DNA of 64,000 nt from Deltaproteobacteria bacterium (lineage in GTDB: Bacteria; Myxococcota_A; UBA9160; UBA4427): NCBI GenBank assembly GCA_016713665.1, contig JADJOR010000002.1:1051035-1115034 (forward strand), written 5' to 3'. Within the stretch, counting starts at the first letter, position 1. Every line of letters begins with the position of its first letter. Both the position numbers and the translations under genes were made by a program. The notes beneath the pieces are model-generated. The model was not told the origin of the DNA. It did not search any database and was given only the letters and a program-made list of their open reading frames with translations. Below, piece by piece: positions 42,233-64,000 of the stretch.

Positions 42233-42591
42233 GTCGTTTTCTGCTTGGCGAACGAGCGCGTACGACGGGCCGGGGGTGTTCGGATCGGCGGACCCTTGGG
42301 GGGGCCGGGGGGCCTGCGGGATGCATCCCCAGTTGGTCGGGTGACCGGAGGGGAGCGCGAGGAAGCGACCGATCGGGTTTCGGGGGAGCATGGGTCGGCG
42401 ACCTCCTGATTCGATCTGGCCATCCGAGCATGCCGTGTGATCGGACGAAGATCCGTCGTGATTCCTTTGGATTTCCTTAAGGTTCGGGCGCGGTCCGGGC
42501 GGCGCGCGCGGCGCTCGACGGGGGCGATGGGGCTTCTTCGACCGTTACATTTCTCGCCCGATCCGCTATTCGGAATCTCGCGAGGCCCAGT

Positions 42592-47608: not shown

Positions 47609-47634
47609 GGGAACGCGTGGTCCAAATATGACTC

Positions 47635-47671
47635 AAAATGTCGGCACCCATGTTATCCATGCCGACATTTT
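47635..47671. promoter_or_regulatory. Perfect 12-bp inverted repeat (terminator of the helicase gene and/or AbiEi operator)
   Basis: aaaatgtcggca (47635-47646), a 13-nt spacer, then tgccgacatttt (47660-47671). It ends 3 nt before the -35 of the abiE promoter candidate. Confidence 0.6.
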
Positions 47672-47674
47672 GCG

Positions 47675-47704
47675 TTGACAGCCCCTTCGGAGTCGGCGCA
47701 TATT
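47675..47704 (+). promoter_or_regulatory. Candidate abiE promoter TTGACA-N18-CATATT, predicting a leaderless or near-leaderless abiEi mRNA
   Basis: The -35 is at 47675-47680 and the -10 at 47699-47704, with ATG 47711 seven nt downstream. The TTG used as the ORF-track start is the -35 hexamer itself. Confidence 0.45.
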
Positions 47705-47710
47705 GCCGGC

Positions 47711-48349: not shown

Positions 48350-49266
48350 CGACCGATGCTGCCGCCTCGGTCCGTGCTCGACTCCTGAACCAGGCACGGG
48401 AACGCGGCGAGGAGTTCGAGTTGACGCTGACGCGCTTCGTCGCCGAGCGGCTGCTCTACCGCCTTGGAGCGTCCCGCGCGCGTGATCGCTGCATTCTGAA
48501 AGGGGCGAGCCTCCTCGCGGTCTGGCTTCCCGATCCCTACCGCGCGACGCGGGACATCGACGTCCTGGCATCGGGACCGACGGACGAGGACGCGATCCGA
48601 TCGCTCGTCGCCGAGATCTGTGCCGTTCCGTGTTCCGTGGACGGGGTGCGGTTCGACGTTTCCGAACTCGTCGTCGACGCGATCCGGTCCGAGGATGAAT
48701 ACTCCGGCCAGCGCGCGCGCTTCCGCGCCTTTCTAGGCAATGCGCGGATCGCCGTTCAGGTCGACATCGGCGTCGGCGACGCGGTGGCCGGACCGATCGA
48801 GGAGATCGACTACCCGACGATGTTGCCCGCGCTCCCCACGCCGCGGCTGCGCGCCTACCCGAGGCAGGTCGCCGTAGCCGAGAAGTTCGAGGCGATGGTC
48901 AAGCTGGACACGCGCAACAGCCGGATGAAGGATTTCCATGACGTCTGGGCCCTCGCCGGCGGATTCGCGTTCGAGGGACCAGCACTCCGAAGCGCCGTCG
49001 CCGCCTGCTTCGAACGGCGCGGTACCCCATGGACTGCCGAGGCGCCTCGAGCTTTGACGGCAGCGTTCTACCAGATGCCGGAGATCGAGTCCCGCTGGCG
49101 GCGCTATCTCGAGGCGGGCGCCGTGCTCGTGCCGCCGCCTGCGCAGTTCGAATCCATCGGGGAACGGATCATCCGCTTCCTGGGGCCGGTGCGCGAGAGC
49201 ATCCTTGCGGGCGAGCCGTTCCCGAAAATTTGGACGGAGGGAGGGCCGTGGCACCCGACCCGGTAA
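48346..49266 (+). CDS. abiEii: AbiEii/AbiGii-family nucleotidyltransferase toxin (DUF1814)
   Basis: ILKGASLL...ATRDIDVL nucleotidyltransferase motif, QVDIGVGD, and AEKFEAMV...SRMKDFHDVW. Confidence 0.85.
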   Translation: MTTDAAASVRARLLNQARERGEEFELTLTRFVAERLLYRLGASRARDRCILKGASLLAVWLPDPYRATRDIDVLASGPTDEDAIRSLVAEICAVPCSVDGVRFDVSELVVDAIRSEDEYSGQRARFRAFLGNARIAVQVDIGVGDAVAGPIEEIDYPTMLPALPTPRLRAYPRQVAVAEKFEAMVKLDTRNSRMKDFHDVWALAGGFAFEGPALRSAVAACFERRGTPWTAEAPRALTAAFYQMPEIESRWRRYLEAGAVLVPPPAQFESIGERIIRFLGPVRESILAGEPFPKIWTEGGPWHPTR

Positions 49267-49438
49267 GCCGCGGAATGAAGCGCGCATTCGGGCAGATTTT
49301 CACGGACGCGGGCGAGGGATTCGCTGCATCTCGATCGAGGCGGGGCGCGCCGGCTTCGTTTCCCCATCGATCCGGCCCGGTCGAAATCGTCGAGCGATCG
49401 GATGGCCACGCGAAGGTTCCCTGACCTAGCTTCTCTTC

Positions 49439-50609
49439 ATGCCCATCCAGCCGTTCAAAATTGAGCTCCCCGACACCCTCCTCTCCGACCTCCACGCCCG
49501 CCTGGCCAACACCCGCTGGCCCGCCGAATCCCCGAGCGCCCTCCTGGCGCCTCGGCATCCCAGAGAGCGTGCTCCGCTCCGCCATCACCCACTGGCAATC
49601 CGCCTACGACTGGCCGGCGCGCCAAGCGAGGATGAACGCCTGGCCCCACTTCCTGACCACCGCCGCCGGCGAGCAGCTCCACTTCATCCACGTCCGCTCG
49701 CCCCATCCGAACGCGACGCCGCTCCTCCTGACCCACGGCTGGCCCGGCTCCTTCGTCGAGTTCCTCGACGTTCTCGGCCCGCTCTCCGACCCGACGGCCC
49801 ATGGCGGTGACGCGGCGGATGCCTTCCACGTCGTCGTCCCCTCGATGCCGGGCTACGGGTTCTCAGGACCGACGACGCAGTCGGGCTTCGACGTCCACCG
49901 CGTCGCCGACGCCGTCGCCGAGCTGATGGCCCAGCTCGGCTACGGACGTTATGTCGCCCAGGGCGGGGACTGGGGCGCGATCGTGACCCGCCGGCTGGGG
50001 GAGGCCTACGCCGACCGGCTCCTCGGGGTCCACTTCAACATGATCTTCGCGCTCCCCGACGCGAGCGATCTGGATCCGATGGCGGGGGTGACCGACGCGG
50101 AGAAGGCGCGCTTCGCCGCGGCGGCGGCGCGCATCGCCGACGGGACCGGCTACATGGCGATCCAGAGCACGAAGCCCGAGACGCTGGCCTACGGGCTGAC
50201 CGATTCGCCGACGGGGCTCGCCGCCTGGATCCTCGAGAAGTTTTACGTCTGGAGCGACCTCGACGAGGGCGGTCTCGCCGCGACCTTCGGCTGGGATCGC
50301 TTGCTCGACAACGTGATGGCCTACTGGGCGACCAACACGATCGCCTCCGCCGCCCGCCTCTACGCCGAGTCCCGCCTCGCGGGCACGGCCGCCGACCAGC
50401 CCTGGAGCGGCCGCGTCGACGTCCCGACCGGCTACTCGCATCATCCCTACGAGCTGATGCAGACGCCGCGCGCCTGGGCGGAGAAGCGCTACCGCATCGT
50501 CCATTGGAACGAGCAGGCGCGGGGAGGGCACTTCGCGGCCTTCGAACGACCGGGGCAGTTCGTCGAGGATCTGCGGGCGTTCCGGCGGGTGTTGGCGGGC
50601 GTTCGCTGA
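49439..50609 (+). pseudogene. Epoxide hydrolase (EHN N-terminal domain plus alpha/beta hydrolase), frameshifted near the N-terminus
   Basis: MPIQPFKIELPDTLLSDLHARLANTRWPAE in one frame, then ...WRLGIPESVLRSAITHWQSAYDW...HGWPGSF in the next (track ORFs 49439.. and 49461..50609). The switch is at the C4 run at about 49530-49533. Confidence 0.75.
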
Positions 50610-50673
50610 GGCCGATTCCCGAAGCTCGATCGGGTGGCTTTCCGGGGGACGACGACGAGCGTCGTTGCCCCAG

Positions 50674-51231
50674 CTAGCGGAGCACCCGCATCAACACGAG
50701 CGCGACGCAGAGCACGATCGAGGCGATCAGGATGCAGTAGCTCCAGCGCAGGAAGCGGTACTTGGAGCGGGCGACGGCCACGCCCTGCGCGTGGATGTCG
50801 CGCACGATGGCGGCCGTGAGGGCGTTCGTATCAGAAAGAAGCTCGCCCATTTCGCGCTGGTAGCGCTCGAGCGGAAGCTCGGCGAAGTGCAGGAAGAAGA
50901 GCAGGTTGAGCTTGTCCGGATCGCCGGGGCGATAGCGACCGGGCAGCGCGCAGAGAATCGCGAGCACGAGCGCGAGGGCCGAGCCGGAGAGCAGGACGAG
51001 CAGCGCGGGGCGGAAGTCCGTGTCGCCGAGCTGGGTGAGCCCGACGCTGAAGATCAGGGCGGACACGGTGATGAGGATGTTGGCCTTCGCGTCGGCCAAC
51101 GCGCTGAAATGGATGAGCCCCTGCTGCAGGGTCCGGAGCGCGTAGTCGACCGTGCTCCGGCTCTCGATCTCGGAGAAGAGCTGCCCCTCGGCGGCGGGAC
51201 CCGGATCGTCCTGGCGGGGCGTGGCGAGCAT
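50674..51231 (-). CDS. DUF5706 / Pycsar-effector-like (PycTM-like) membrane protein
   Basis: ATG 51231 follows a GAGGGAG SD. An N-terminal helix with FSALADAKANILITVSALIF is followed by 2-3 TM helices. This is a by-eye family assignment. Confidence 0.45.
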   Translation of the reverse strand: MLATPRQDDPGPAAEGQLFSEIESRSTVDYALRTLQQGLIHFSALADAKANILITVSALIFSVGLTQLGDTDFRPALLVLLSGSALALVLAILCALPGRYRPGDPDKLNLLFFLHFAELPLERYQREMGELLSDTNALTAAIVRDIHAQGVAVARSKYRFLRWSYCILIASIVLCVALVLMRVLR

Positions 51232-51491
51232 GACTCCCTCAGCGCGCACGAGCCACGCAGGCGGAGAATAACCTCCGGGGATTGCGCGGGACAGGCCGCC
51301 CTTGCTCCACGACGGCTCGAACCTGCGATCCGGCCCGGCCGGCCTCGGGCGCGCTCTCCACTCGCGATGGCCCGCTCGCCCGCTTCGGACGATCCGCGAC
51401 ACCGCCGGTGACCCGCGCCACTGAGCCCCTGCCCATTCCGGTCGATCCGCCCAGCCTGATCCCCACGCAGACTGAGCAAGGAGGGCCCCCC

Positions 51492-51950
51492 ATGGCCTTC
51501 GGAATCCGCAGCAAGCCGACCCGCGTCCCGATGCACGAGGCGCTCGACGGCACGCCGCAGCCGACGAGCGAGACCTATCTCGATGCCGGCTCGGTCCTGA
51601 CCGGCGAGCTGCGCTTCGCCGGCAACGTCCGGCTCGAAGGGCGCGTCGAGGGACAGATCCACGCGGGCCAGGCGGTGATCGTCGGCGAGCATGCGGAGAT
51701 CGATGCCTCGATCGAGGCCGAGACCCTCGAGGTCTACGGCACGGTCGTCGGTGACATCCGCGTCGCGCGCCAGACCGTCCTCCACAAATCGGCGCGGGTC
51801 GAAGGCGAGATCCAGACCGCGGGCATCGTGGTCGAGGAGGGCGCCCGCTTCAAAGGCTGCATCCTGATCGGCCGGGACGATCCGCGCCCGGCGCCGACCC
51901 CGGCGGTCGCGGCGCTCGACGTGCCTTCGCTCGCGGCGGTTCGGGATTAG
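51492..51950 (+). CDS. Bactofilin (polymer-forming cytoskeletal protein, DUF583)
   Basis: ATG 51492 follows an AAGGAGGG SD. It has the characteristic beta-helical repeat (GNVRLEGRVEGQIHAGQAVIVGEHAEIDASIEAETLEVYGTVVGDI...). Confidence 0.85.
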   Translation: MAFGIRSKPTRVPMHEALDGTPQPTSETYLDAGSVLTGELRFAGNVRLEGRVEGQIHAGQAVIVGEHAEIDASIEAETLEVYGTVVGDIRVARQTVLHKSARVEGEIQTAGIVVEEGARFKGCILIGRDDPRPAPTPAVAALDVPSLAAVRD

Positions 51951-52361
51951 GCGAACGGGGGGCGGGCGGCGTTCGGCGAAGTGTGCACTCGCAGAGCGAC
52001 TCGGTGCCCGGGGCAGGCCGGCGCGCTTGCGCGCCTCGCGAAGGAGTGGGGCGAGTTTCATGATGTCGCGATAGCCAGATGGCCATCGCCGCGACGACCA
52101 GCGGGCCTGCTGGGGGCGATTGAGAACGGGCGCACAACGGGATCGATACGCTCCTCTGCGCTTCGATGAGAAATCGATCGGTGTCCCGAAGCCCAGCCGT
52201 GCCTGGAAGTCTTCCTCGCGTCCCGCGGGGCCTCCGGCTATTTATAAGAGCGATGGGCGCGCCTCGTCCCCGCCCGATCTGCCTCCGATCCTCGAGCTCC
52301 GATACCCGCCCGCGCGCGTCTGCGATCGGACATCGCCGCGGGACGGCTCCTTCGCCGACGG

Positions 52362-52859
52362 TCAGCCCGGCACGATCGTCGTCCTCGGCCCCTGACGCTT
52401 CGCCCCGAGCCGCGGCATCAGCGACTCCTCGTGAATCTCCTGCAGCTCGATCAGGTTTCCGAACGGATCCCGGCCGTAGGTCGTCTGGAGCCCGTAGCTG
52501 CTCTGCGGGACGCAGGTGAACGTCATCCCCGCTTCCGTTAGGCGCCGATGGATGGCTTCGATATCGGTGACGTCGAGAGCGATGTGGGTGAACCCGTAGC
52601 GGTTCACGGCGGGCGCGGGATCGAGGGGCGCGGGGACGGGCTTCTCGAACTCGAAGATCTCGAGGTAGAGGTTGCCGGCCTCGAGCAGCATGGCCCGACC
52701 CGAGCCGCCCTCGACGCCCATCACGCGGTCGACGAGCGGCGCGTCGCGCCAGCCGTCGCGGAAGATCTCCTCGAAGCCGAGGATCCCGACGTAGAACGCG
52801 TGGGCGCGGTCGAGGTCGGGGACGGACATCGCAATGTGGTGGACGCCGTGGATGGGCAT
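52362..52859 (-). CDS. VOC (glyoxalase/bleomycin resistance/dioxygenase) family protein
   Basis: Start at MPIHGVHHIAMSVPDLDRAHAFY. There is a second beta-alpha-beta-beta-beta module with GFTHIALDV and DPFGNLIEL. Confidence 0.8.
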   Translation of the reverse strand: MPIHGVHHIAMSVPDLDRAHAFYVGILGFEEIFRDGWRDAPLVDRVMGVEGGSGRAMLLEAGNLYLEIFEFEKPVPAPLDPAPAVNRYGFTHIALDVTDIEAIHRRLTEAGMTFTCVPQSSYGLQTTYGRDPFGNLIELQEIHEESLMPRLGAKRQGPRTTIVPG

Positions 52860-53121
52860 GTCGGGTCTCCAAGGTGCGGGCAAACCTCTGCATTCCGGGA
52901 CGCGAGGGCCGTGTTTTGAATAGCTTGGGTCACGATTCGTCGGGCCGCACCCTGCGCGGACGGCCTGCGGGCTTCGGGTACGGGGAGCCTGAAGGGGAGT
53001 GACGTGATACGGTGTTGGCATCGAAATCGCTGGCGCACTGGCGTTCGGGGCCGTGCTCGGGGGTCCTCGATCCGCATTGCGTGGCGCCCGGCGCCGGCAA
53101 CCGAGAGCGGGAGGGACTGCC

Positions 53122-53703
53122 ATGAATCGCGTCGATCTCGAGAGCTGGCTCTACCGAAATGCGGACTCGACTCGTCTGTCGACCCACGAGCTGATCGATC
53201 GCTGCGAGGCCGAGGTCCGCAGCCACGCCGAGGTGATCGCCTGGAAGCACGCGCTCCGCGTCGCCGCGGCGACCCTGCGCCGCTTCGACGGCCAGTTCGG
53301 CCTGCCTGCGAGCGAGATCTTCGTGACCCGCGAGGTCTGCCACGAGGTCGCCCGGGAGCTGAGTCGTCACGAGCCGGAGCTCGGCTCGATCGATGAGACG
53401 GCGTGGTTGAGCCACGCGATCCTGGATTCGATCGATCCCGAGGACCGAAGGGTCTTCCGGGTCTGGGTGCGGCAGATCGCCGAGCGGGAGGAGCATCGAA
53501 TCTGGCACGAGGTCGTCGTCTTCACGCATCACGTCGCGCGCGCCTTGATCGAGAAGGCCCACCTGACGGGCGAGCTCGACTGGACCTTCGAGCGGACCTA
53601 TCCGAAGGTGGCGACCCGCGTGATGCAGCTGCTGCTCCGCGAATATGCCGCACACCTTCGCGAGTCCCGGAAGGAGAGGGCGGCGCAGGCCGCGCTCCAC
53701 TAG
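53122..53703 (+). CDS. Hypothetical all-helical protein
   Basis: ATG 53122 follows a GGGAGGGA SD. It is 193 aa with no motif I recognise. Confidence 0.5.
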   Translation: MNRVDLESWLYRNADSTRLSTHELIDRCEAEVRSHAEVIAWKHALRVAAATLRRFDGQFGLPASEIFVTREVCHEVARELSRHEPELGSIDETAWLSHAILDSIDPEDRRVFRVWVRQIAEREEHRIWHEVVVFTHHVARALIEKAHLTGELDWTFERTYPKVATRVMQLLLREYAAHLRESRKERAAQAALH

Positions 53704-53886
53704 GACCCGGCGACCCACCTCCGATTCGTCCCGATTCCGCCCCGGATTCGAACGCGAATCCACGCCGACTCTTCACGGATGAGCGGGGGATTCTGGACGA
53801 CACTCTGTCGCAGTCCGACCGGAACGACCGGCTCGGATCGACGCGCCCCCCCGCCGTCAGGACGCGAGCAGCCGCGGAGGGAATCC

Positions 53887-56508
53887 ATGCGACGAGATTG
53901 GGACTTCGACCAGATCCTGGGTCGGCGCGCGCGCGTCGACTTCCATCTCCATTCCTACGCATCGAACACGACCGACTACTACGCCTCGAACTCGCTCGCG
54001 ATCCCGGAGTCCTACTCCGATCCGATCGAGACCTGGCGCCTGCTCAAATCTCGGGGGATGGACCTCGTCACCCTGACGGACCACAACTCGATCGCTGGCG
54101 TCAAGGAGATGCTCGACGCCGGGCTCGAGGACGTCTTCATCAGCGCCGAGATGACGGCGACCTTTCCCGAAGACGGCTGCAACATCCATGTCACGGCGGC
54201 GAACATCTCCGAGGAGGAGTTCGCCGAGATCGATCGCCTCCGGCCGAATCTCTACGAGATGCTGGCCTACCTCGACGAGCGGATCCGGACCGAGGCCGAG
54301 CGACCGGACGGTCGCCGGATCGCCTACTTCATGACCCATCCCCTGATGAGCACGAAGAACCGCCCGTATGGGCGCGAAGGCGCGCTCTCGATCCGACACA
54401 TCGAGCGCGCGATGCTGCTCTTCGAATGCATCGAGACCCAGAACGGCGCCCGGGCGCGCTCGGGCAACGACCTGACGGCCCACATGGTCGAATCGCTCGA
54501 CGAGAAGCGGATCCTCGAGCTCGCGGCGAAGCACGAGCTCGAGCCTCGGGGCGCGATCCCGTGGCGCAAAGCCGTCGTCGGCGGCTCCGACGATCATTCG
54601 GGGATCAATCCGGGCCGGACCTGGACCGAGTTCGAATACCACGGGGAGCGGCCGCGGCCGAACGACGTGATCGACTCGATCCGACGGCGATCGACGACGA
54701 CGGGCGGCATGCACGGCGGGCCGGTGACCCTCGCCCACGCCCTCGTCAAGCTGGTCTACGACGGCCAGAACCACCGACAGCGCGCCGAGCAGGCGACCCG
54801 GCTCCACCTCTCGGACCCGATCAACCTGCTGCTCGGCTTCGCTTTCGAGAAGCCCTCGGCGTCCCTGCGATCGCGCGCGGCCCTGCGGCTGCGCATCGCG
54901 CTCCAGACCGTCTTCGCGCGACCCTTCGCCCGGCTCGTCGACCGGCGCGAGTCCTTCGAACGGGTCTTCCTCGGCGAGGCCCAGACGCTGCTCGCCGACG
55001 AGAGCTTCCGGGGGCGCCTGACGGGCATCGGATCGACCGACGACAAGATCTTCCTGATCATCAGCACGCTCCTCGATCGGCTCTTCCTCCGCTATGCGGA
55101 GCGGATCCGGAGCCAGCCGCCCGGGGACATGGTCCGGACGATCAAGGAGTCGATCGCGCTGGTCAGCTCGAACCTGCTGGTCTCCCTCCCGTACTTCGTC
55201 TCCTACGCGAACTTCGGGACGGACCGTTTGCTGAACCGCGACGTCCGCCGCGCCTTCGACCTGCGACAGACCGAGCGCCTGCTGCTCGTGACCGACACGC
55301 TCTTCGACGTGAACGGAGTCGCGCTCACGATCCGGAAGATCCTGCGCGAGGCGGAGCGCCGCGGCATCGACCTCACGGTCGTGACCGCCCTGGCGGAGCA
55401 CGAGCGCGCCGCGGGGCTCGCGGATCCGGAGATCGCAGCGCTCGTCGCGCAGGGGCGCCTCAAGATCTTCACCGCCCTCGCGAGCGCCGATCTGCCCGAG
55501 TACCAGGAGCTCCAGCTGCGGCTGATCCCGTTCCTCGACCTCCTGCGCTTCGCCCAGGAGGGGGGCTTCAGCAAGGTCCAGATCTCGACCCCCGGCCCGG
55601 TCGGTGTGCTCGGTCTGCTCGCCGCGAAGCTGCTCGGACTCGAGACCGCGGCGACCTACCACACGAGCTTCCCGGAGTACGTCGAGGAGTACACGAAGGA
55701 CGTGAGCCTCGAGGCGCTGGCGTGGCGCTACATGGTCAGCTTCTACCACTGGGTCGACGAGGTCGTGGTCCCCTCGCGCTACATCGCGCAGCTCCTCCAC
55801 AAGCGCGGCCTGCGCAATCGCAACCTGCTCGTGCTCGATCGCTGGGTCGACCTCGAGCGGTTCCACCCCCGGCATCGCACGCCCGGCTTCTGGACGCGCT
55901 TCGGCCTCGACGACGAGGCGGCGCGGGTCAAGCTCGTCTACGTGGGCCGCATCGGCGCGGAGAAGAACCTCGACGTCCTGGCCCACGCCTATCGAAGCCT
56001 CCATGCGGAGCATCCCGAGGCCCATCTCGTGATCATCGGCGGCGGCCCCTACCGAGGCGAGCTCGAGGCGTTGCTCGAGGGGCTGCCCGTGACCTTCACG
56101 GGCTATCTCGGCGGCGACGATCTCTCCCGCGCGATCGCCTCGGCCGACGCGAAGCTCTTCCCGAGCACGACCGATACCTGGGGCAACGCGCCGCTCGAGG
56201 CCCAGGCCTCCGGGCTCCCGGTCGTGGTCTCCGATCGCGGCGGACCGCAGGAGCTGATGGAGGACGGGGTCACGGGCTTCCGGGTCCGGGGCGGAGACGT
56301 CCAGTCGCTGCTCGCCGCGATGCGCGCCCTGATGGATCGCGACCTGCGCGAGCGGATGGGCCACGATGCGCGCGCGTTCGTCGAGGCGAACGACGTGCCC
56401 GAGCCCTACTCGGCGATCCTCGAGAGCACGATCTACCGCGGGCGCCGACGGAGCGAGAAGCTCCTGGCCGGGCTGCTTCGCCACGAGGACGACGCGGCGT
56501 CGGCATGA
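53887..56508 (+). CDS. PHP-domain phosphoesterase fused to a GT4-family glycosyltransferase
   Basis: The N-terminus has the PHP motifs VDFHLHSYAS and LTDHNSIAG...GGSDDHSG. The C-terminal GT-B domain carries GRIGAEKNLDVL and FPSTTDTWGNAPLEAQASGLPVV (EX7E). Confidence 0.75.
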   Translation: MRRDWDFDQILGRRARVDFHLHSYASNTTDYYASNSLAIPESYSDPIETWRLLKSRGMDLVTLTDHNSIAGVKEMLDAGLEDVFISAEMTATFPEDGCNIHVTAANISEEEFAEIDRLRPNLYEMLAYLDERIRTEAERPDGRRIAYFMTHPLMSTKNRPYGREGALSIRHIERAMLLFECIETQNGARARSGNDLTAHMVESLDEKRILELAAKHELEPRGAIPWRKAVVGGSDDHSGINPGRTWTEFEYHGERPRPNDVIDSIRRRSTTTGGMHGGPVTLAHALVKLVYDGQNHRQRAEQATRLHLSDPINLLLGFAFEKPSASLRSRAALRLRIALQTVFARPFARLVDRRESFERVFLGEAQTLLADESFRGRLTGIGSTDDKIFLIISTLLDRLFLRYAERIRSQPPGDMVRTIKESIALVSSNLLVSLPYFVSYANFGTDRLLNRDVRRAFDLRQTERLLLVTDTLFDVNGVALTIRKILREAERRGIDLTVVTALAEHERAAGLADPEIAALVAQGRLKIFTALASADLPEYQELQLRLIPFLDLLRFAQEGGFSKVQISTPGPVGVLGLLAAKLLGLETAATYHTSFPEYVEEYTKDVSLEALAWRYMVSFYHWVDEVVVPSRYIAQLLHKRGLRNRNLLVLDRWVDLERFHPRHRTPGFWTRFGLDDEAARVKLVYVGRIGAEKNLDVLAHAYRSLHAEHPEAHLVIIGGGPYRGELEALLEGLPVTFTGYLGGDDLSRAIASADAKLFPSTTDTWGNAPLEAQASGLPVVVSDRGGPQELMEDGVTGFRVRGGDVQSLLAAMRALMDRDLRERMGHDARAFVEANDVPEPYSAILESTIYRGRRRSEKLLAGLLRHEDDAASA

Positions 56509-58160
56509 GCGCAGGAAGCCATTCCGGGCTCGGGCTCTACCGCCTCTGGCCCGCTCGCTTGTTGCTCTCCCGCGCGAAGCATCCCTCGCTCGCGGGCCAC
56601 GTGCGCATGGGCAAGCGGCTCGCGCGCCTGCTGCCCTACTACGAGTACGACGAGCGGGAGTTCCTGCGTGTCGATGGCTGTCCGGACGAGGTTGCGAGCC
56701 GGCGGGCCGCAGGCCTCGCGGCGCTCTCGAAGCGCTCGAGCGAGAAGGCGCCGATCACGCTCGAGAAGACCGAGGAGCTCCTCGAGGGCGTCTCGGATTT
56801 CGTCTTCACCGACGCCTACCGCGTCCCCTTCCAGTTCCGAAGGCAGCTCGGACGCTGGCTGCGCGTCGGCGCGTTTCGCGACGCCTCGTCGGGTGTCAAG
56901 CTCCGGGATCTCGACGGCAACTGGAGCTACGACCTGACGGGCTCCTACGGGGTCAACGTCTTCGGGCTCGACCTCTACAAGGAGTGCATCGAGCGGGCGT
57001 CGGAGCGGGTGCGTGAGCTCGGTCCGCTGCTCGGCCCCTACCACCCCATCATCCTCGACAACGTCCGCCGGCTGAAGGCAATTTCGGGGCTCGACGAGGT
57101 CTCGTTCCACATGTCGGGGACCGAGGCCGTCATGCAGGCCGTGGCCCTCGCCCGATACCATACCGGGCGCAGCCATCTCGTTCGCTTCTGCGGCGCCTAC
57201 CATGGCTGGTGGGACGGAGTTCAGCCGGGGATCGGGACGTCGCGCGAGGTCCACGACGTCTACACCCTCTCGGAGGGGAGCGACGCGACCCTGCGCGTCC
57301 TCGAGACGCGCAAAGACATCGCCTGCGTCCTCGTCAACCCGTTGCAGGCGCTCCATCCGAATTCGCCGGCCCCGGGCGACTCGACCCTCGTCCACTCCGG
57401 CCGCCGCGCCCATTTCGATCGCGCCGGCTACACCGCCTGGCTCGCGAAGCTGCGCGAGGTCTGCACGCGCCGCGGCATCGTCCTGATCCTCGACGAGGTC
57501 TTCCTGGGCTTCCGATTGGCTCGGGGCGGGGCGCAGGAGTACTTCGGCGTCGAAGCCGACCTCGTGACCTACGGCAAGACGCTCGGGGGCGGGCTGCCGA
57601 TCGGCGTCGTCTGCGGGAAGCGCGCGCTCATGCGGCGCTTTCGCGAGGACCGGCCCTCCGACGTGCTCTTCGCCCGGGGGACCTTCAACGCCCATCCCTA
57701 CGTCCTGGCCGCGATGAACGAGTTCCTGAAGCGGCTCGACGACGAGGATTTGCGCGAGAGCTACGCGAACCTCGACGCGCGCTGGAACGGGCGGGTCGCA
57801 GCCCTGAACGAGCGCCTCGAGGCCCGCGGCCTTCCGGTGCGCTTCGCCAACCTGACCTCGGTCTGGACGACGCTCTTCACGGCCCCGTCCCGCTACAACT
57901 GGATGTTCCAGTTCTACCTGCGCGCCGAGGGCCTCACGCTCTCGTGGGTCGGGAGCGGACGCCTGATCTTCAGCCACGCCTACGGCGAGGACGATTTCCG
58001 CGAGGTCGCGCAGCGGATCGAGCTCGCCGCCGAACGGATGGCGGCCGACGGCTGGTGGTGGTCCGACGGCCGCGAGAGCGATTCGGACATCGCCCGTAGC
58101 ATCCTGAAGCGCGCGCTCTTCAGCCGAGCTTCGGGTCGATCAGCTCGCGGTGGACGATGA
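56505..58160 (+). CDS. Class-III (GSA-aminomutase-like) PLP-dependent aminotransferase with N-terminal extension
   Basis: There is an ATGA start/stop overlap with the upstream gene. Motifs: SGTEAVMQAVALAR, ILDEVFLGFR, and the PLP-Lys context DLVTYGKTLGGGLPIG. Confidence 0.8.
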   Translation: MSAGSHSGLGLYRLWPARLLLSRAKHPSLAGHVRMGKRLARLLPYYEYDEREFLRVDGCPDEVASRRAAGLAALSKRSSEKAPITLEKTEELLEGVSDFVFTDAYRVPFQFRRQLGRWLRVGAFRDASSGVKLRDLDGNWSYDLTGSYGVNVFGLDLYKECIERASERVRELGPLLGPYHPIILDNVRRLKAISGLDEVSFHMSGTEAVMQAVALARYHTGRSHLVRFCGAYHGWWDGVQPGIGTSREVHDVYTLSEGSDATLRVLETRKDIACVLVNPLQALHPNSPAPGDSTLVHSGRRAHFDRAGYTAWLAKLREVCTRRGIVLILDEVFLGFRLARGGAQEYFGVEADLVTYGKTLGGGLPIGVVCGKRALMRRFREDRPSDVLFARGTFNAHPYVLAAMNEFLKRLDDEDLRESYANLDARWNGRVAALNERLEARGLPVRFANLTSVWTTLFTAPSRYNWMFQFYLRAEGLTLSWVGSGRLIFSHAYGEDDFREVAQRIELAAERMAADGWWWSDGRESDSDIARSILKRALFSRASGRSARGGR

Positions 58161-58746
58161 GGCGATAGGGCGCCTTCCAATAGGTCCGCACGTCGTTGAA
58201 CGGATCGGTCACGATCTTCGCGAACCAGACGATGCCGGTCTGGACGTCGCGGATGAAGAAGAGCTGCACGGTCCGGAAGAGCAGGGCGCCGACGCCGACC
58301 GCCAGCCAGAGCATCGTCAGATCCTCGACGTAGCTGCCCGCGAGGGTGTAGGGACGGATCAGCCCGTAGAGGTCCGGCTCGAGATAGAGCAGGATCGGCG
58401 CCGCCAGGAAGACGCCGAAGAGGGCGATCTTGCGCGTCAGGTTGTAGCCGATCTTGACGTCTTCCTTCTCCTGATGGGTCATGCCGTTGACGTGGTCGTA
58501 GCCGTTGGGCTCGAAGAAGAAGTGGCCGATCTGGCGCGAGATCCAGGCGCCGAGCCAGCCGATCCAGACCGCCAGCGCCTGGTCGATCGCGAGCAGCGCG
58601 TACGAGGTCAGGAAGCAGCAGGCGCTGAAGAGGTGGAGGCTCTGGTTGATCCGGCTGTGGTGGTAGAAGCGGTGGTCGTCCCAGCGCTGCTCGCGCAGGG
58701 CTTCCCGGAAGCTCTGCTTCTGGACGGGGATCAGGGCGGTCTGCAT
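58120..58746 (-). CDS. Mpo1-like / DUF962 membrane protein
   Basis: YHHSRINQSLHLFS and IGHFFFEPN His motifs within 4-5 TM helices resemble the DUF962 (yeast Mpo1) family. Confidence 0.5.
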   Translation of the reverse strand: MQTALIPVQKQSFREALREQRWDDHRFYHHSRINQSLHLFSACCFLTSYALLAIDQALAVWIGWLGAWISRQIGHFFFEPNGYDHVNGMTHQEKEDVKIGYNLTRKIALFGVFLAAPILLYLEPDLYGLIRPYTLAGSYVEDLTMLWLAVGVGALLFRTVQLFFIRDVQTGIVWFAKIVTDPFNDVRTYWKAPYRLIVHRELIDPKLG

Positions 58747-58762
58747 CGTTCACGTCTCCTGG

Positions 58763-59791
58763 TCAGGGGCTCGCGGCGGCGATGGGATGTCGCACCGTGC
58801 CCCCCGCACGGTCGAGCCCTTCACGTGAGCGAGCGTTCATGTCGATCAAGAGCGGCTCGCCGACCTTCACGAGCCGGCCTTCGCGGATGCGATCCGCCAG
58901 CACGAGGTCGGGGCTCGCGAGGACGACGATCGTCGAGCCCTGCTCGAACCAGCCGAGCTCCTGGCCCTTCTCGTAGCGCGCGTCGCAGGCGATCCGCGTC
59001 GGGCCGGCATAGCGGAGCCCGAGTGTCGAATCGAGGCAGTGCAGACGCAGCGTCGCCACACCGATCGCGGCGATCGCGACGAGGGTCAGGGCAGGTCCGG
59101 ACTCTTCCTGGCGATCGCGGCGATCGCGGCGATCGTGTCCATCGGCTCCGCGGCGCGGATCGACGCGCGGTTCGAGATGCGGCCCGAGAAGCGGTTCGAG
59201 TCGCAGCGGAATGACGGCGCGCTCGTTGCGGCAGAAGAGGCGCTCGACGCGGGCGAGGGCGATGGGGTTGACGTTCCAGGTATCGCCCGCGATGTGGATG
59301 ACCTCCGACACGCGACAGCGCGTCGGCGCGTGGAAGCGGTGGTACATCGTCGATTTGAGGCGGAGCGTGACGTAGCGGCCGCCCTGGTGGCGCCGCGCGA
59401 GGGCCTCGTCTCCGAGCAGGTCGGCGAGGGCGTAGTCGAGGTCCTTGGCCTGGATCAGGGTCCCCGCCTCGATGCGCCCGCAGGCGCCGACGATGGCGTC
59501 ACAGGGGCTGACGATCGTGTCGGGTGCGCTCGCGATGGGGCGCGCGCCGGGGCGAAGCTCCCGGATGAAGCAATCGCGCAGGCTGCGGAACTCGGTGGTG
59601 CGGGCCTCGGAGAAGTCGAGCTCCGGGGCGAACTGCTTCCAGACGGCGAGGGACGTTCCGACGACGAGCGGGCTCTCGATGCGACTCCACCAGCCGAGGA
59701 AGAGCGTCGCGAACCGCCGTGGGATCCGATTCGTCAGGAGGAAGTTGAGATCTTCCTGTTGCACGAGGCGTCCGATCATTCGCGTCCACAT
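58763..59791 (-). CDS. psd: Phosphatidylserine decarboxylase family protein (with low-complexity insert)
   Basis: LLTNRIPRR, SPCDA, MYHRFHAP and the self-cleavage context FEQGSTIVV. An Arg/Asp-rich insert of about 30 aa lies at 59060-59160. Confidence 0.75.
   Translation of the reverse strand: MWTRMIGRLVQQEDLNFLLTNRIPRRFATLFLGWWSRIESPLVVGTSLAVWKQFAPELDFSEARTTEFRSLRDCFIRELRPGARPIASAPDTIVSPCDAIVGACGRIEAGTLIQAKDLDYALADLLGDEALARRHQGGRYVTLRLKSTMYHRFHAPTRCRVSEVIHIAGDTWNVNPIALARVERLFCRNERAVIPLRLEPLLGPHLEPRVDPRRGADGHDRRDRRDRQEESGPALTLVAIAAIGVATLRLHCLDSTLGLRYAGPTRIACDARYEKGQELGWFEQGSTIVVLASPDLVLADRIREGRLVKVGEPLLIDMNARSREGLDRAGGTVRHPIAAASP
59110..59136. repeat. 9-bp tandem repeat ggcgatcgc x3 (encodes DRRDRRDR on the minus strand) inside psd
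   Basis: Read directly from the sequence. Two further copies of cgatcgcg(g/a) occur at 59061-59080. Confidence 0.8.
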
Positions 59792-60062
59792 CGCTCGCTG
59801 GATCGGCCAGAGCGACCTTCGCGAAGAGCGCGAGCGGGACGTGTGAAGGGACGGTCGCGAAGACTTCGCGGCGCCTTCCGGATCTCGTCACGCAATCCGC
59901 AACCGAACGACGCCACGCCCACCCCCCGGTCTTCGACGTCGGGAGGATGTCGGATGTCGGCGTCGCATTCACTGACGATTCGGCGATCGTCGTGTGACGG
60001 CGGGCGCGGAGATCGCCGCGATTGCGTGGCGATCGCGTGGACGCGACCGCGGGACCGCGCGC

Positions 60063-60635
60063 TCAGGATTCGGCGCGGGTCGCTTCGGACTCGGGCAAGC
60101 GCTCGGCGAAAGCGCCGAGGACGTAGTAGGCGGTCTCGAGCAGGGGCAGCACGAACCAATCGGGATGGGGATGGCGCAGCAGCAGGAACAGGCCCCAGAT
60201 CGAGAGGACGGTGCCGACGTATTGGGGATGGTCGAGGACCGAGTAGGGGAACTCCCGGCTCCACTCGACCGGGCGCCCGAATCGGTTGCCGTAGAAGACG
60301 CCGACGCGTCCGAGGCGCAGGAAGACGGCGACGTTGAGGATCTGGCCGATGAGGATCAGCGCGAGGGCGGCCCATCCGATCGGCGACGCCCAGTTGAAGG
60401 GCCAGCCCGTCTCGGCGCCGAAGCGCAGGCACCAGGCGGAGAAGACGACCAGCTGGACGCCCTTGAAGACGACGAAGAGCCGCTGCAGGGCATCGACGGG
60501 ATCACCCAGGCCCACACGTTCGCAGAGCGCTGCGTAGGTGGCCGGCCGACGATGGATCCACGCATAGGCGAAGCGTTCGATCGAGAGCAGGACAGCAGGC
60601 AGAAAGAGGTCACCCGGCTCCACAGGTATGGCCAC
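60063..60635 (-). CDS. PEMT/ICMT-like membrane methyltransferase (phospholipid N-methyltransferase family)
   Basis: Contains 4-5 TM helices. The C-terminal motif is FPYSVLDHPQYVGTVL...LLETAYYV, as in PEMT-type enzymes. Confidence 0.55.
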   Translation of the reverse strand: MAIPVEPGDLFLPAVLLSIERFAYAWIHRRPATYAALCERVGLGDPVDALQRLFVVFKGVQLVVFSAWCLRFGAETGWPFNWASPIGWAALALILIGQILNVAVFLRLGRVGVFYGNRFGRPVEWSREFPYSVLDHPQYVGTVLSIWGLFLLLRHPHPDWFVLPLLETAYYVLGAFAERLPESEATRAES

Positions 60636-60747
60636 TCCTCGAGTTCTTCGCGGGCGCGCGTCGTCGTCGAGGCGAGATATAGCGTACGGGGCGCGGAAGG
60701 TGGGGGGCTTGAGGGGATGTCGTCGCGGAGCTTCTGCCAGCCCTCGC

Positions 60748-62223
60748 TCATGCGCCCTCCCTCTTTCGGGTCGTCAGCGACGGACCGCTCAGCAGCCGCG
60801 TGAGCAGTCGATAGGTCTGCGCGCCGTAGGGCCACTGGGTCACGATCTTCCCCGCCGCATTCTTGAAGTAGTTCCGGCTCGTCGTCCAGGCGGTCCCGCG
60901 CATGCCGTCCTGCAGCCAGGCATGCCAGACGTCGGCCCAGAAGGGCTTGACCTCCGCCGCCGTCGTCCCCTCGCGCATCATGCGCTGGATCGCCCGCAGC
61001 GCGTGGCCGGATTGTGCGAGCAGCGAGGTCACGATCTCGCCCCCGTTGGTCCCCGGCCCGTACAGCATGAAGAAGTTCGGAAACCCGGGCACCGTCGTCC
61101 CGAGGAATCCCCGCGGCTCGTCGTTCCAGTATTCCTTCAGCGTCTGCCCGCCGACGCCGACGACCTCGACCCGCGCGAGATAGTTCGTCGGCTGGAAGCC
61201 CGTCGCCATCACGAGCACGTCGACCTTGCGCTCGGTCCCGTCGACGTCGACGATGCCGCTCGCCGTCACGCGGGCGACGGCGCGGGGGATCAGCTCGACG
61301 TTCGGGCGCTTCAGCGCCGGGTAGAAGTCCGAGCTGAAGATCGGCCGCTTGCCGGGATAGGCGTATTTCGGCGTGACCAGCGCCTTCAGATCCGGACGAT
61401 CGGCGAAGACCTCGTCGAGGTAGGCGAGGGCGGCGGCCTTGCCGAGCGTGTTGACCCGCGTGCCGGGCTTCCAGAAGTTGCCGCGCCAGGAGCTGTGCTC
61501 GATCGACCAGAAGCCCTTGATCCGCTCCCAGCGGTAGCGCAGCGGGCTGCGCCATTTCCTGCGCTCGTCGGGGGTGAAGTCGTGGTCGCCCTTGGGCAGG
61601 ACCCAGCCGGGCTCGCGTTGGAAGAGATGGAGACGCTTCACGATCGGCGCGATCGTCGGGACGATCTGGGTCGCGCTCGAGCCGGTGCCCACGATCGCGA
61701 CGGTCCGGCCGGCGAGATCATGCTGATGTTCCCAGCGCGCGGTATGGAATTTCGGGCCCTCGAAGCGCTCGAGACCCGGCCACGACGGATACTGCGGGAC
61801 GTTCAGGAAGCCGACGGCGGAGATGAGGACGTGGCAGACGAAGGTCTCGCCGTGGCCGAGCGAGAGCGTCCAGGCATGCGTCGATTCGTCCCAGGCCGCG
61901 CGCTCGACCGGGACGCCGAGGCGGATCTTCGGGGCGAGGCCGTAGTCGACGACGGTCTCTTCGAGATAGGCGTGGAGCTCCGCCTGCTTCGCGTGGGTCC
62001 GCGTCCAGTCGTGGCGCTTGAACGGGAAGGAGTACATGTGCGAGGGGACGTCGACCTCGCAGCCGGGATATTGGTTGTCCCACCAGGTCCCGCCGACCCG
62101 CGTCGAGGCCTCGAAGAGGGTGAAGTCCTGGATTCCGGCGTTCTGGAGCGTGATCGCGGCGGAGAGGCCCCCGAATCCCGCGCCGATGATGGCGACCGTA
62201 GGCGACTTGCTCTTGCCGAACAC
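60748..62223 (-). CDS. Flavin-dependent Baeyer-Villiger-type monooxygenase (class B)
   Basis: FAD motif IIGAGFGGL, NADPH motif IVGTGSSA, and BVMO fingerprint FEGPKFHTARW (FxGxxxHxxxW). Confidence 0.85.
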   Translation of the reverse strand: MFGKSKSPTVAIIGAGFGGLSAAITLQNAGIQDFTLFEASTRVGGTWWDNQYPGCEVDVPSHMYSFPFKRHDWTRTHAKQAELHAYLEETVVDYGLAPKIRLGVPVERAAWDESTHAWTLSLGHGETFVCHVLISAVGFLNVPQYPSWPGLERFEGPKFHTARWEHQHDLAGRTVAIVGTGSSATQIVPTIAPIVKRLHLFQREPGWVLPKGDHDFTPDERRKWRSPLRYRWERIKGFWSIEHSSWRGNFWKPGTRVNTLGKAAALAYLDEVFADRPDLKALVTPKYAYPGKRPIFSSDFYPALKRPNVELIPRAVARVTASGIVDVDGTERKVDVLVMATGFQPTNYLARVEVVGVGGQTLKEYWNDEPRGFLGTTVPGFPNFFMLYGPGTNGGEIVTSLLAQSGHALRAIQRMMREGTTAAEVKPFWADVWHAWLQDGMRGTAWTTSRNYFKNAAGKIVTQWPYGAQTYRLLTRLLSGPSLTTRKREGA

Positions 62224-62438
62224 GGGATTCCTCCGAGGTCGCGGGCGGGGCGCCCGTCGGATCCGATTCTCGCTCGCAGAATCCGATTCCGCGAGGGCCG
62301 GCGGGGCTGGACGCCGTTCGGCGGGGCTGGTCTTTCGCCGGGCGATCGAGTTTCATCTGCCGCCCGTGAGGGGGGCCGCCGTCGCCGTCCGCACGGCCCG
62401 CGCCCGCCCGAGGCCCGAGGCTCGAGGAGAGTCGACCC

Positions 62439-63822
62439 GTGAGATCGAGGCCCATCCGATCGATCGTGCTCGCGCTCTCGCTGCTCGCCGGCTTCGGCGG
62501 GAGCGGCTGCCGGACCTATTTCACCGTGAACGACGCGCTCACGCGGATCGAGCCGCGCACGGGCTACCGCGCCGATCGCCGCTGGTCGCCGGCGCGCTCG
62601 AACGAGCTGCTCGTCATCGTCGCGTTCTCGGGGGGCGGGACCCGGGCGGCCTCCTTCGCGTACGGCGTGCTCGAGGGGCTCGAGCGGACACGCATCTCGA
62701 TCGACGGTCGCACGGTCTCGCTCTTCGACGAGATCGACCACGTGACGGGTGTCTCCGGGGGGAGCTTCACGGCCGCCTATCTCGGGCTCCACGGCCGCGG
62801 GATCTTCGCCGACTTCGAGGAGCGCTTCCTGCGCCGGGACGTGCAGGGCGCCTGATCCTCCAGATGCTCACGCCCTGGAACTGGGTTCTCTTCGCGTCGC
62901 CCTTCTTCGAGCGCAGCGACATGATCGCCCGCTACTACGATCGCATCCTCTTCGAGGAAGCGACCTTCGCCGATCTCGCCGCGCGAAATGGTCCCTGATC
63001 CAGATCAACGCGACGGACCTCGCGACGGGCTCGCCCTTCTCCTTCATCCAGGACCAGTTCGACTTCACTCTGCTCGGATCTCTCTCGACCTATCCGATCT
63101 CGCGCGCGGTCGCGGCGTCGTCGGCGGTGCCCGGGCCGATGTCGCCGCTCACGCTGCGCAACTTCGCGGGACAGTGCGGCTTCGTGCCGCCGCCCTGGAT
63201 CGGCGAGGCGATCGCGTCGCAACGGACCTTCAGCCGCAACTACGTCAACGCCATGAACCTCGACTCCGATACCCGCCGCAAGGCGCGCCGCTTCATCCGG
63301 CTGATCGACGGCGGCGTCTCCGACAATCTCGGCGTCCGCGGTCCCTTCGAGAGCACGCTGCTCCAGCGCGCGCCGAGCGAGGTCGAGCGCGAAGAGCTCG
63401 GACCGCTCCGCCACATGGTCCTCGTGCTGGTCAACGCCGCGACGGCGCCCGAGGTTGAGTGGGAGGCGATCGACGCCGCGCCCGCGCTCTTCGACATCAT
63501 CGATCAGACGACGACCGTCCAGATCAACCGCTACACCCTCGAGACGATCGAGCTCCTGCGCGCGACCTTCGAGAGCTGGCAGGAGGTCGCCGCGACCTTT
63601 TCCGAGCCGGTCGGCTTTCACCTCGTCGAGGTCGACTTCACGAAGCCGGCGGATCCGGCGGAGCGCCTCTATCTGAACTCGCTCCCGACGAGCTTCCGCC
63701 TCGACGACGAGGCCGTCGATCGGCTGCGGGCGGCGGGACGCGACTCGCTCGAGGCGGATCCGGAGTTCCGTGCGCTCGTCGAGTCCCTCGGAGGACGGTC
63801 GCGGCCGGTCGGGGCCGAGTAG
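62439..63822 (+). pseudogene. Patatin-like phospholipase lipoprotein, two frameshifts
   Basis: Signal/lipobox LLAGFGGSGC, oxyanion motif FSGGGTRA, nucleophile GVSGGS, and catalytic Asp IDGGVSDNLG. The gene is spread over three frames (62439..62855, ..62998, ..63822), with switches at about 62850 and about 62995. Confidence 0.75.
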
Positions 63823-63833
63823 GCGCCGACGTC

Positions 63834-64000
63834 CTATTGGTCGTTTCTGGTCGGTCGGGCGAGTCCGCTTCCGCGCCGCCGGCTCGCGGCTGCGAGGGCA
63901 AGCGCCGCGAGGGCGAACGCCTCGAGGCCCGGCTCGGGGACGCGGACGATGCGGACGGCGTTGCTCGGTGCGCGCCCGATGTAGAGGCGAGCGCACCGCG
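63834..64000 (-). CDS. PEP-CTERM protein, C-terminal end only (gene continues beyond window)
   Basis: The minus-strand reading ends ...VRVPEPGLEAFALAALALAAASRRRGSGLARPTRNDQ* (stop at 63834-63836). Confidence 0.6.
   Translation of the reverse strand, partial: RCARLYIGRAPSNAVRIVRVPEPGLEAFALAALALAAASRRRGSGLARPTRNDQ

Follow-up and report, generated by a model that had tools for sequence, protein, structure and literature searches.

In the 64,000-nt window of a Deltaproteobacteria bacterium genome analyzed here (contig JADJOR010000002.1, positions 1,051,035 to 1,115,034), four adjacent genes spanning 53887-59791 almost certainly constitute one functional unit, as predicted from their joint occurrence in other genomes. 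Two genes on the plus strand, encoding a fusion of a PHP domain with a GT4 glycosyltransferase (PHP::GT4, 53887-56508) and a class-III aminotransferase (56505-58160), converge on a pair of minus-strand genes encoding a phosphatidylserine decarboxylase (PSD, 58763-59791) and a small protein related to the DUF962 enzyme Mpo1 of yeast (Mpo1-like, 58120-58746). Rather probably, its enzymes work on the head groups of membrane lipids or take part in lipid remodelling.

An alignment of twelve relatives of the fusion protein led to 80 genomic loci in Planctomycetota, Myxococcota, Acidobacteriota, Betaproteobacteria and SAR324, taken with flanks of 10 kb, in which full-length fusion homologues show 53-77% identity to the window protein. 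Searching these loci with the window proteins by tblastn revealed the aminotransferase in 72 loci (48-77% identity), the Mpo1-like protein in 66 and the PSD in 61, while the other products encoded around the module, i.e., a VOC/glyoxalase protein, a helical open reading frame (ORF), a PEMT-family methyltransferase, a Baeyer-Villiger monooxygenase (BVMO) and both halves of a patatin, did not match in any of the 80. Phmmer, employed as a further check of the non-module proteins, likewise gave no match for the helical ORF, the BVMO and the patatin halves in these loci. All four module genes are present in 60 of the 80 loci, arranged in four different orders (39, 13, 6 and 2 loci), and 16 of the 20 incomplete loci are explained by a contig end on the relevant side. 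In the nearest relatives (77% identity; loci L001, L126 and L127), the module is retained together with a 4-nt overlap of the first two genes, and the flanks are different. Whenever both are found, the PSD and Mpo1-like genes lie side by side on one strand, except for 13 loci of the Betaproteobacterial type as well as L119, L121, L122 and L124. Because the four genes are co-conserved in this set while the other window genes never match, they represent a real unit. All-against-all ORF clustering of the 80 loci for further conserved neighbours yielded antisense artefacts and small families found in at most nine loci, and in a Pfam census of the 112 directly flanking genes a methyltransferase was the sole recurrent function.

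The fusion protein comprises 873 aa and is 100% identical to database protein P0001 of the same length; an alternative start at ATG 53779 is possible. It can be divided into a PHP region (residues ~1-300), a helical linker of ~165 aa (~300-465) and the GT4 domain (~465-873), the latter detected by Pfam at residues 511-865 of the 909-aa ORF. In the PHP half, Pfam finds only PHP_C at an E value of 0.009. The Foldseek top matches of an AlphaFold model of the N-terminal 470 residues are all PHP proteins, e.g., PsfC (7rty, 3e-8) and RNase AM (8e-6), which confirms the N-terminal half as a PHP domain at the level of the predicted fold. The fusion homologues share without exception the metal-ligand motifs DxHxH, DH and DDH, with D18, H20, H22, D65, H66, E88, H101, D235, D236 and H237 as invariant ligands, and the same holds for D763 and E771 of the GT4 domain. 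The best solved relative of the latter is PimB' (3okc, 1e-22), and its best NCBIfam match is GpgS, an N-acetylglucosamine (GlcNAc)-phosphatidylglycerol synthase (NF053787, 3e-35). With 121.7 bits versus a cut-off of 480, an assignment to GpgS was rejected, leaving it as the nearest named GT4 subfamily only; the domain falls far short of membership for PimB' as well. The PHP-plus-linker half retrieved 277 representatives at 50% identity with E values of 1e-30 or lower (P0365-P0510 among them) and defines a much larger superfamily. Many members, only 30-40% identical, have a length of 800-870 aa, and others of ~580-640 aa. The lengths of the former are consistent with further PHP::GT4 fusions, and the PHP-plus-linker architecture as such is widespread, with several subfamilies lacking an assigned function.

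The aminotransferase is a 551-aa pyridoxal phosphate (PLP)-type class-III enzyme resembling glutamate-1-semialdehyde aminomutase (GSAM), with a conserved N-terminal extension of ~120 aa. Its start codon and the stop codon of the GT4 reading frame overlap in an ATGA (56505-56508), by which the gene is translationally coupled to that of the fusion; the fusion and its coupled partner had been correctly recognized in an initial annotation of the window. The protein matches Aminotran_3 (PF00202, 2e-29) and clearly misses the hemL cut-off (164 versus 527 bits). The PLP lysine K358 and the cofactor-binding D330 are each kept in 66 of 68 homologues. As best solved relative, the amine-transferase domain of the mycosubtilin synthase MycA (6kfm) aligns with residues 124-513 at 1.4e-46, ahead of the GSA aminomutases at 1e-32. 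In public databases, the module proteins are annotated as "glycosyltransferase", "glutamate-1-semialdehyde aminomutase" or "hypothetical protein".

The PSD (342 aa) is a pyruvoyl proenzyme with a PS_Dcarbxylase domain (PF02666, 7e-47) that clears the TIGR00163 cut-off (133.6 versus 111.75 bits) and aligns with E. coli Psd (7cnw) at 7e-24. The self-cleavage site G285-S286-T287 is kept in all 59 aligned sequences, as are H151 and H154, and D98 is found in 58 of 59. Likeness to the E. coli enzyme suggests phosphatidylserine as a probable substrate. The window protein carries an Arg/Asp-rich insert of 30 aa at residues ~200-232 (59100-59195; RVDPRRGADGHDRRDRRDRQEESG), positioned between GST cleavage site and beta-chain core and missing from all 58 homologues. 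The Mpo1-like gene follows that of the PSD in the same operon after a gap of 16 nt and encodes a polytopic protein of 208 aa; both are membrane proteins. On its own, the Mpo1-like protein matches PF06127 at an E value of 1e-4 with 22.7 bits, i.e., below the gathering score of 24. Of its homologues, 43 of 43 match PF06127 (E value of 0.01 or lower, at best 2.5e-6) and nothing else, so that the protein can be assigned, weakly as a single sequence and consistently across the family, to a probable divergent subfamily of PF06127. Residues H25, H29, H38, H75 and E79 are invariant in 66 of 66 sequences. The predicted structure is all-helical and confident (pLDDT of 85), and a fold search with this model did not retrieve any solved structural relative. 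Aminotransferase and Mpo1-like genes converge with a 41-nt overlap of their 3' ends (58120-58160), and no terminator-like hairpin is found between them in the window. A similar convergent 3' overlap of ~23 nt is present in the closest relatives, L126 and L127. In all four module proteins, the catalytic signatures are intact.

Further loci were gathered via a search with the Mpo1-like protein, in which the aminotransferase, Mpo1-like protein and PSD share 58-67%, 57-60% and 45-52% identity, respectively, with the window proteins and the fusion is lacking. L119 (Methyloversatilis RAC08) holds the trio only and L125 the trio plus a small methyltransferase, whereas L121 and L124 combine it with a separate GT4 and methyltransferase(s), with no phosphoesterase called. 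In L122 and L123, the trio is accompanied by a separate GT4 of ~345 aa, only ~30% identical to the fused one, and by a Metallophos phosphoesterase of ~270-280 aa with weak similarity to LpxH; GT4 and Metallophos genes are adjacent in L123 and four genes apart in L122. Among the carriers, Methyloversatilis sp. RAC08 and Nannocystis punicea FL3 (L078) are in culture. Hence, aminotransferase, Mpo1-like protein and PSD are the invariant core, while the PHP::GT4 part is replaceable. Moreover, the swap of the PHP domain for a phosphoesterase of unrelated type suggests that the pathway includes such an activity as an integral step. L125 also bears, at 4762-6006 on the minus strand and ~370 nt beyond the methyltransferase flanking the trio, a gene for an FMN-dependent 2-hydroxy-acid dehydrogenase/oxidase (PF01070), a single case that fits the idea of 2-hydroxy-acid chemistry considered below.

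The methyltransferase recurring next to the module is a class-I enzyme of ~195-215 aa, encoded within 364 nt of it in 22 of the 80 loci and likewise in L124 and L125. Its best matches are OlsG and PmtA, which methylate the nitrogen of ornithine lipids and phospholipids, respectively, and it stays well below the cut-offs of both. In L121 and L122, a Legionella-type PmtA-like enzyme takes its place. A linkage of the module to true olsG was rejected, as this gene sits in an unrelated olsH-olsG-olsI operon. The window does not encode an OlsG/PmtA-like class-I methyltransferase but the PEMT-family protein instead (190 aa; PF04191, 7.7e-15), the gene of which (60063-60635, minus strand) lies 271 nt upstream of the PSD gene on the same strand. 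The only trace of an orthologue among the 80 loci is one weak phmmer match beside the module in L070. The initial annotation had included this PEMT in the pathway, which does not hold in terms of orthologous conservation and is sustained by analogy with the lipid N-methyltransferases of the other loci; the window protein is probably a non-orthologous analogue and a lineage-specific fifth member of the module. The adjoining methyltransferase in 22 of the 80 loci argues that the module product carries a methylatable amine.

In the Betaproteobacterial loci, 15 in total, the module is organized with two divergent intergenic regions, and both hold sites resembling CTGTCAT-N4-CTGTCAT, the consensus of the proteobacterial PhoB box. 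At least 11 of the 14 consensus positions are matched between the Mpo1-like and GT4 genes in 12 of 15 loci and between the PSD and aminotransferase genes in 9 of the 13 loci holding both. Examples are CTTTCAT-CGTT-CTGTCAT upstream of an Mpo1-like gene and GCGTCAT-CAGC-ATGTCAT upstream of an aminotransferase gene, and a TATA-like -10 box follows ~10 nt downstream of each site. A strict Pho-box pattern gives 28 matches in 1.33 Mb versus 5 expected, with 22 of them at the two intergenic positions. Conservation of these intergenic sites in loci whose proteins are only ~50-60% identical to those of the window points to functional sites, and control by PhoB under phosphate starvation can be predicted for this one clade. 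Sigma-70 promoters and intrinsic terminators did not exceed the shuffled expectation within 52800-63900 of the window. In non-Betaproteobacterial loci, the hexamer AGTCTT is found ~30-140 nt upstream of the PHP::GT4 gene in 11 cases versus 1.0 expected (11-fold; L003, L005, L034 and L042 included), in four of them forming GTC(T/A)T-N6-GTC(A/T)T direct repeats with an 11-bp period. These repeats could be a response-regulator site in Planctomycetota.

From these features, we infer substrates, product and sequence of steps as follows. The reading we prefer is a membrane-bound pathway making or remodelling an amine-headed polar lipid, possibly glycosylated, to which we would give about an even chance. 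A lipid substrate is assumed because the best GT4 relatives, PimB' and GpgS, use lipid acceptors, because PSD and Mpo1-like protein are membrane proteins and the associated methyltransferases have OlsG and PmtA as best matches, and because the MycA domain, the best relative of the aminotransferase, aminates a beta-ketoacyl chain. Phosphoesterase and GT4 would cleave a phosphoester on a lipid precursor, in the manner of the PlcP/Agt pair described below, and glycosylate the exposed hydroxyl of diacylglycerol or of the head group; alternatively, as suggested by the nearest GT4 relatives, a phospholipid precursor may be dephosphorylated and glycosylated. The trio would act in series on a single alpha-carbon of a carboxylated, lipid-linked head group. 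By analogy with Mpo1, an Fe/O2-dependent attack of the Mpo1-like enzyme on a 2-hydroxy acid is conceivable, the aminotransferase would interconvert 2-oxo and 2-amino forms to give a phosphatidylserine-type intermediate, and the PSD-type pyruvoyl enzyme would decarboxylate this intermediate to an ethanolamine-type primary amine, which might then be methylated by the N-methyltransferase in many lineages. In Betaproteobacteria, the unit may stand under PhoB control. Such a scheme would be a lipid-bound analogue of the conversion of 3-phosphoglycerate via phosphohydroxypyruvate to phosphoserine, followed by Psd. We regard this specific order of steps as rather doubtful. Somewhat better, yet still unlikely on balance, is the wider proposal that the trio represents an undescribed, widespread and PssA-independent route to serine/ethanolamine-type head groups on a lipid, which together with phosphoesterase-glycosyltransferase and N-methyltransferase would yield a new class of phosphorus-sparing, possibly glycosylated amine lipids under phosphate stress. 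With the classical PssA-Psd-PmtA route to phosphatidylethanolamine (PE) and phosphatidylcholine, the module shares a pyruvoyl decarboxylase bearing all motifs and an end in N-methylation by PmtA/OlsG-like or PEMT-family enzymes. In contrast to that route, PssA is not encoded in or beside the module, three extra enzymes have no place in the classical scheme, and the methyltransferases are far below the OlsG and PmtA cut-offs.

Several points weigh against this reading. Except for the generic PSD model, no equivalog cut-off is reached by any module protein, and the aminotransferase is nearer to beta-amino/aldehyde-type enzymes than to alpha-amino-acid transaminases. The 2-hydroxy-acid lipid from which the trio would start is hypothetical, and Mpo1 itself decarboxylates its substrate and does not stop at the 2-oxo acid. 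PsfC, the top fold match of the PHP domain, is presumably an oxidase and not a phosphoesterase. A module member is missing from L021, L051, L054 and L060 despite room for it, and L119 and L125 lack a GT4 within the flanks read (10 and 8 kb). With regard to phosphate control, the Betaproteobacterial loci are mutually related, so that shared ancestry adds to the conservation of the sites, and the E. coli-type Pho box scores at background in the window as well as in the Planctomycetota, Myxococcota and other non-Betaproteobacterial loci, the Pho motifs of which may differ.

Under the same phosphate stress, the module might conversely dismantle aminophospholipids for salvage. In this scheme, PSD would funnel phosphatidylserine to PE, the class-III-fold enzyme would strip off the amine by transamination or a phospho-lyase-type elimination, the Mpo1-like protein would oxidize the remnant, and the phosphoesterase would free phosphate and diacylglycerol, the latter being capped as a glycolipid by the GT4. 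The Pho-box-like sites of the Betaproteobacterial loci and the closeness of the PSD to E. coli Psd are in line with this, and class-III-fold phospho-lyases do exist, e.g., ethanolamine-phosphate phospho-lyase. Phosphoesterase plus GT4 would, moreover, mirror the PlcP-Agt pair, including its replacement by Metallophos and GT4 proteins in variant loci. However, PlcP alone gives the same result in one step, a frequent lipid-amine N-methyltransferase neighbour fits the making of an amine and not its destruction, the aminotransferase belongs to the GSAM/MycA group and not to the AGXT2-like group comprising the phospho-lyases, and a membrane dioxygenase in this role is without precedent. All in all, salvage appears improbable. 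The PlcP-Agt pair itself converts phospholipids to glycolipids under phosphate stress in Sinorhizobium, SAR11 and Pseudomonas (PMC4796936). Judged by architecture, its metal-dependent phosphoesterase beside a GT4 has a likely counterpart in the fusion of our module and in the Metallophos and GT4 proteins of the variant loci; Pho-box-like sites, present in the Betaproteobacterial loci and not above background in the window, may add to this likeness for that clade. In contrast to PlcP, the window phosphoesterase has a PHP fold and is fused via a helical linker, a Metallophos protein being found only in L122 and L123, and the pair always travels with the trio, for which no PlcP context has been reported; the words aminotransferase and decarboxylase do not occur in the cited study (PMC4796936).

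Less likely still is a modification of acyl chains, in which Mpo1-like protein and aminotransferase would act on carbons 2 and 3 of a fatty acid, via alpha-oxidation of 2-hydroxy fatty acids and amination of a keto or aldehyde group, giving a glycosylated amino-fatty-acid or alkylamine lipid, with the PSD only supplying PE. Indeed, the nearest characterized relatives act on acyl chains, i.e., yeast Mpo1 and the MycA domain, the latter on a beta-ketoacyl thioester. However, the module is devoid of a carrier protein, ligase or acyltransferase, the Mpo1-like gene has its tightest linkage to that of the PSD, and the associated methyltransferases are head-group enzymes. The likeness to both relatives has its limits as well. 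Yeast Mpo1 is an Fe2+-dependent 2-hydroxy-fatty-acid dioxygenase of PF06127 (PMC10398889), which the window protein resembles as a small polytopic membrane protein of this family with invariant His, Asp and Glu; in contrast to a context of sphingoid-base catabolism, its partners are PSD and aminotransferase. The MycA domain is likewise of the GSAM-like PLP type and has a lipid substrate, whereas the window aminotransferase is a stand-alone protein with the extra N-terminal 120 aa, lacking polyketide or nonribosomal peptide synthetase partners and any carrier protein nearby.

A similarly small chance is left for a soluble product such as a compatible solute, with GT4 and phosphatase making a glycoside from a phosphorylated acceptor, like the synthase/phosphatase pairs for sucrose phosphate or glucosyl-phosphoglycerate, and the other enzymes converting the aglycone, for example, from glycerate via serine to ethanolamine. 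A fused phosphatase-glycosyltransferase is typical of two-step solute synthesis, and sucrose-phosphate-synthase-like chains are among the GT4 matches (2e-8). Lipid-acceptor GT4s score far better, however (1e-22 and 3e-35), the PSD-type and Mpo1-like proteins are membrane-bound, and the neighbouring methyltransferases are lipid-type enzymes. As to an amine-bearing glycolipid, the GpgS, GpgD and GpgF system of Pseudomonas aeruginosa employs a GT4 for decorating a phospholipid head group, resulting in glucosaminyl-phosphatidylglycerol (PMC12713373). Although no NCBIfam model matches the window GT4 domain better than GpgS, the module lacks a GpgD-type deacetylase and a GpgF-type flippase, and the amine of the Gpg product stems from GlcNAc deacetylation and not from an aminotransferase or decarboxylase.

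The initial annotation had read the eight consecutive genes from the helical ORF through the patatin as one cluster for a dedicated, undescribed lipid pathway. All eight families are indeed present, as revealed by Pfam and NCBIfam searches and, for PHP, by fold, with the match of the single Mpo1-like protein being sub-threshold, and several of them are lipid-related. Also, a patatin of another family stands beside the module in three Polyangiaceae loci, and the PEMT has functional analogues. Nevertheless, that all eight belong to a single pathway is very unlikely. The genes are distributed over both strands in three transcription blocks and do not make up a co-directional set: three plus-strand genes converge on four minus-strand genes, and the patatin gene on the plus strand diverges from that of the BVMO. 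The latter (60748-62223, minus strand) encodes a flavin-containing monooxygenase (FMO)/BVMO-like protein, for which the FxGxxxHxxxW fingerprint was rightly noted (FEGPKFHTARW); it has an N-terminal GAGFGG motif and both Rossmann motifs of a type I BVMO, with PtlE as best NCBIfam match (3e-50). In 38 metagenomic loci of its relatives, no PEMT, PSD or patatin is found nearby, so that the proposed sub-group of psd, PEMT and BVMO had to be given up, and an FMO-like gene near the module in L126 was discarded as a link, being a paralogue of 38% identity. PSD and Mpo1-like protein instead travel with PHP::GT4 and aminotransferase, a pair that the initial annotation had proposed as a separate sub-group. 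The patatin family was correctly called, whereas an intact lipoprotein gene is not present. Two frameshifts, near 62850 and 62995, spread the gene (62439-63822) over all three plus-strand frames. Signal peptide, glycine-rich motif and GxSxG are covered by the frame that ends at 62855, while a middle piece (...LILQMLTPWNW...AARNGP) lies in another frame and the half containing the DG motif in a third from ~62995. Two indels within ~150 nt suggest either a pseudogene or an assembly error. With tblastn and phmmer finding no counterpart of helical ORF, BVMO and patatin halves in any of the 80 loci and with the flanks of the nearest relatives differing, the test of co-conservation succeeds for the four module genes and fails for these three, which are unrelated chance neighbours of the module. 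The idea of a dedicated pathway thus survives for the four-gene unit, and an amino-, glyco- or N-methylated head-group lipid as its product is still the best reading, as a conclusion from the genes involved. Finally, a chance adjacency of a housekeeping psd and unrelated enzymes, each family being common on its own and the PSD close to the E. coli housekeeping enzyme, is hardly credible given that the linkage of the four genes persists in four arrangements and at least five phyla with differing flanks, and that Methyloversatilis is the sole named genus among the Betaproteobacterial matches, the rest being unclassified metagenome-assembled genomes (MAGs), which may suggest a sporadic accessory unit. 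Hopanoid side-chain amination (HpnO-like), glycosylphosphatidylinositol-like synthesis of glucosaminyl-phosphatidylinositol and uronate decarboxylation/amination of the 4-amino-4-deoxyarabinose type were dropped for want of support, as were Deinococcus-type alkylamine glycophospholipids, with no Deinococcota among the matches.

Full-text literature searches did not retrieve a published description of the module's gene combination, and to our knowledge a pyruvoyl decarboxylase, a membrane protein of a dioxygenase family, a GSAM-like aminotransferase and a phosphoesterase-glycosyltransferase are not known to cooperate. The membrane-lipid diversity of the dominant uncultured phyla in soil and freshwater is poorly tied to genes. 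In this regard, searches with the aminotransferase and the Mpo1-like protein each scored at least 8000 protein clusters, distant family members included, and the best 120 of the at least 8000 in each search (~57% identity or more) are almost all metagenomic and without a functional name. Identification of the product would reveal the function of a large DUF962 subfamily as well as of the widespread PHP-plus-linker fusion architecture. There is a substantial chance that the product is a new lipid class, and models of adaptation to nutrient stress could be extended by such a class or by a new PE-type route. Should the route proposed for the trio be true, an amine lipid would be used by Planctomycetota, Myxococcota, Acidobacteriota and Betaproteobacteria of soil and freshwater under phosphate stress.

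As a minor association, nine loci from three phyla (L025, L026, L039, L041, L043, L046, L048, L060 and L077) encode a polytopic ~290-aa membrane protein without Pfam match, which may be an optional transporter or flippase; its gene lies directly beside that of the PSD or Mpo1-like protein in L026, L039, L046 and L060. The patatin-like phospholipase genes mentioned above for Polyangiaceae/deltaproteobacterial loci are located just downstream of that of the PSD (L008, 15970-17064; L025, 6656-8059; L077, 16394-17500) and belong to a family unrelated to the window patatin; an association of acyl hydrolase and module could be recurrent but is weak. Homologues of this phospholipase and of the ~290-aa membrane protein were not found in the window. 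L049 (CALQBK020000030.1), deposited as a MAG of "Bifidobacterium breve", holds a complete module plus an OlsG/PmtA-like methyltransferase and looks mis-binned, its module proteins being ~50-60% identical to those of the window, as in the Planctomycetota and Myxococcota loci.

The window has a G+C content of ~70%, and raw ORF lists are full of artefacts. Gene calls in the 52.3-63.9 kb region were thus based on a frame plot of third-position GC (GC3), and families were assigned by Pfam and NCBIfam searches of the window proteins. By this means, an Arg-rich ORF at 59776-60432 was discarded as the PEMT gene, being in the wrong frame, and the VOC/glyoxalase gene was placed at 52362-52862 on the minus strand. 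The helical ORF (53122-53703, plus strand; 193-216 aa) is without any family match. Farther upstream, a DEAD/DEAH helicase gene (42820-45644, plus strand) is split, with the DEAD domain at 42820-44238 and Helicase_C in the frame 43071-45644 from ~44150. At least two split genes within 20 kb, i.e., those of the patatin and of the helicase at ~44.2 kb, suggest that this part of the contig contains indel errors or has really decayed. The stretch 42000-52900 upstream of the module is mixed and island-like, with a G+C content of ~0.67-0.69 versus ~0.73 in the first 20 kb, and also encodes a UvrD-like helicase (45245-47608), an AbiEi/AbiEii toxin-antitoxin pair (47675-49266), an epoxide hydrolase (49461-50609), a PycTM membrane protein of the Pycsar effector type (50674-51402, minus strand) and a bactofilin (51282-51950).

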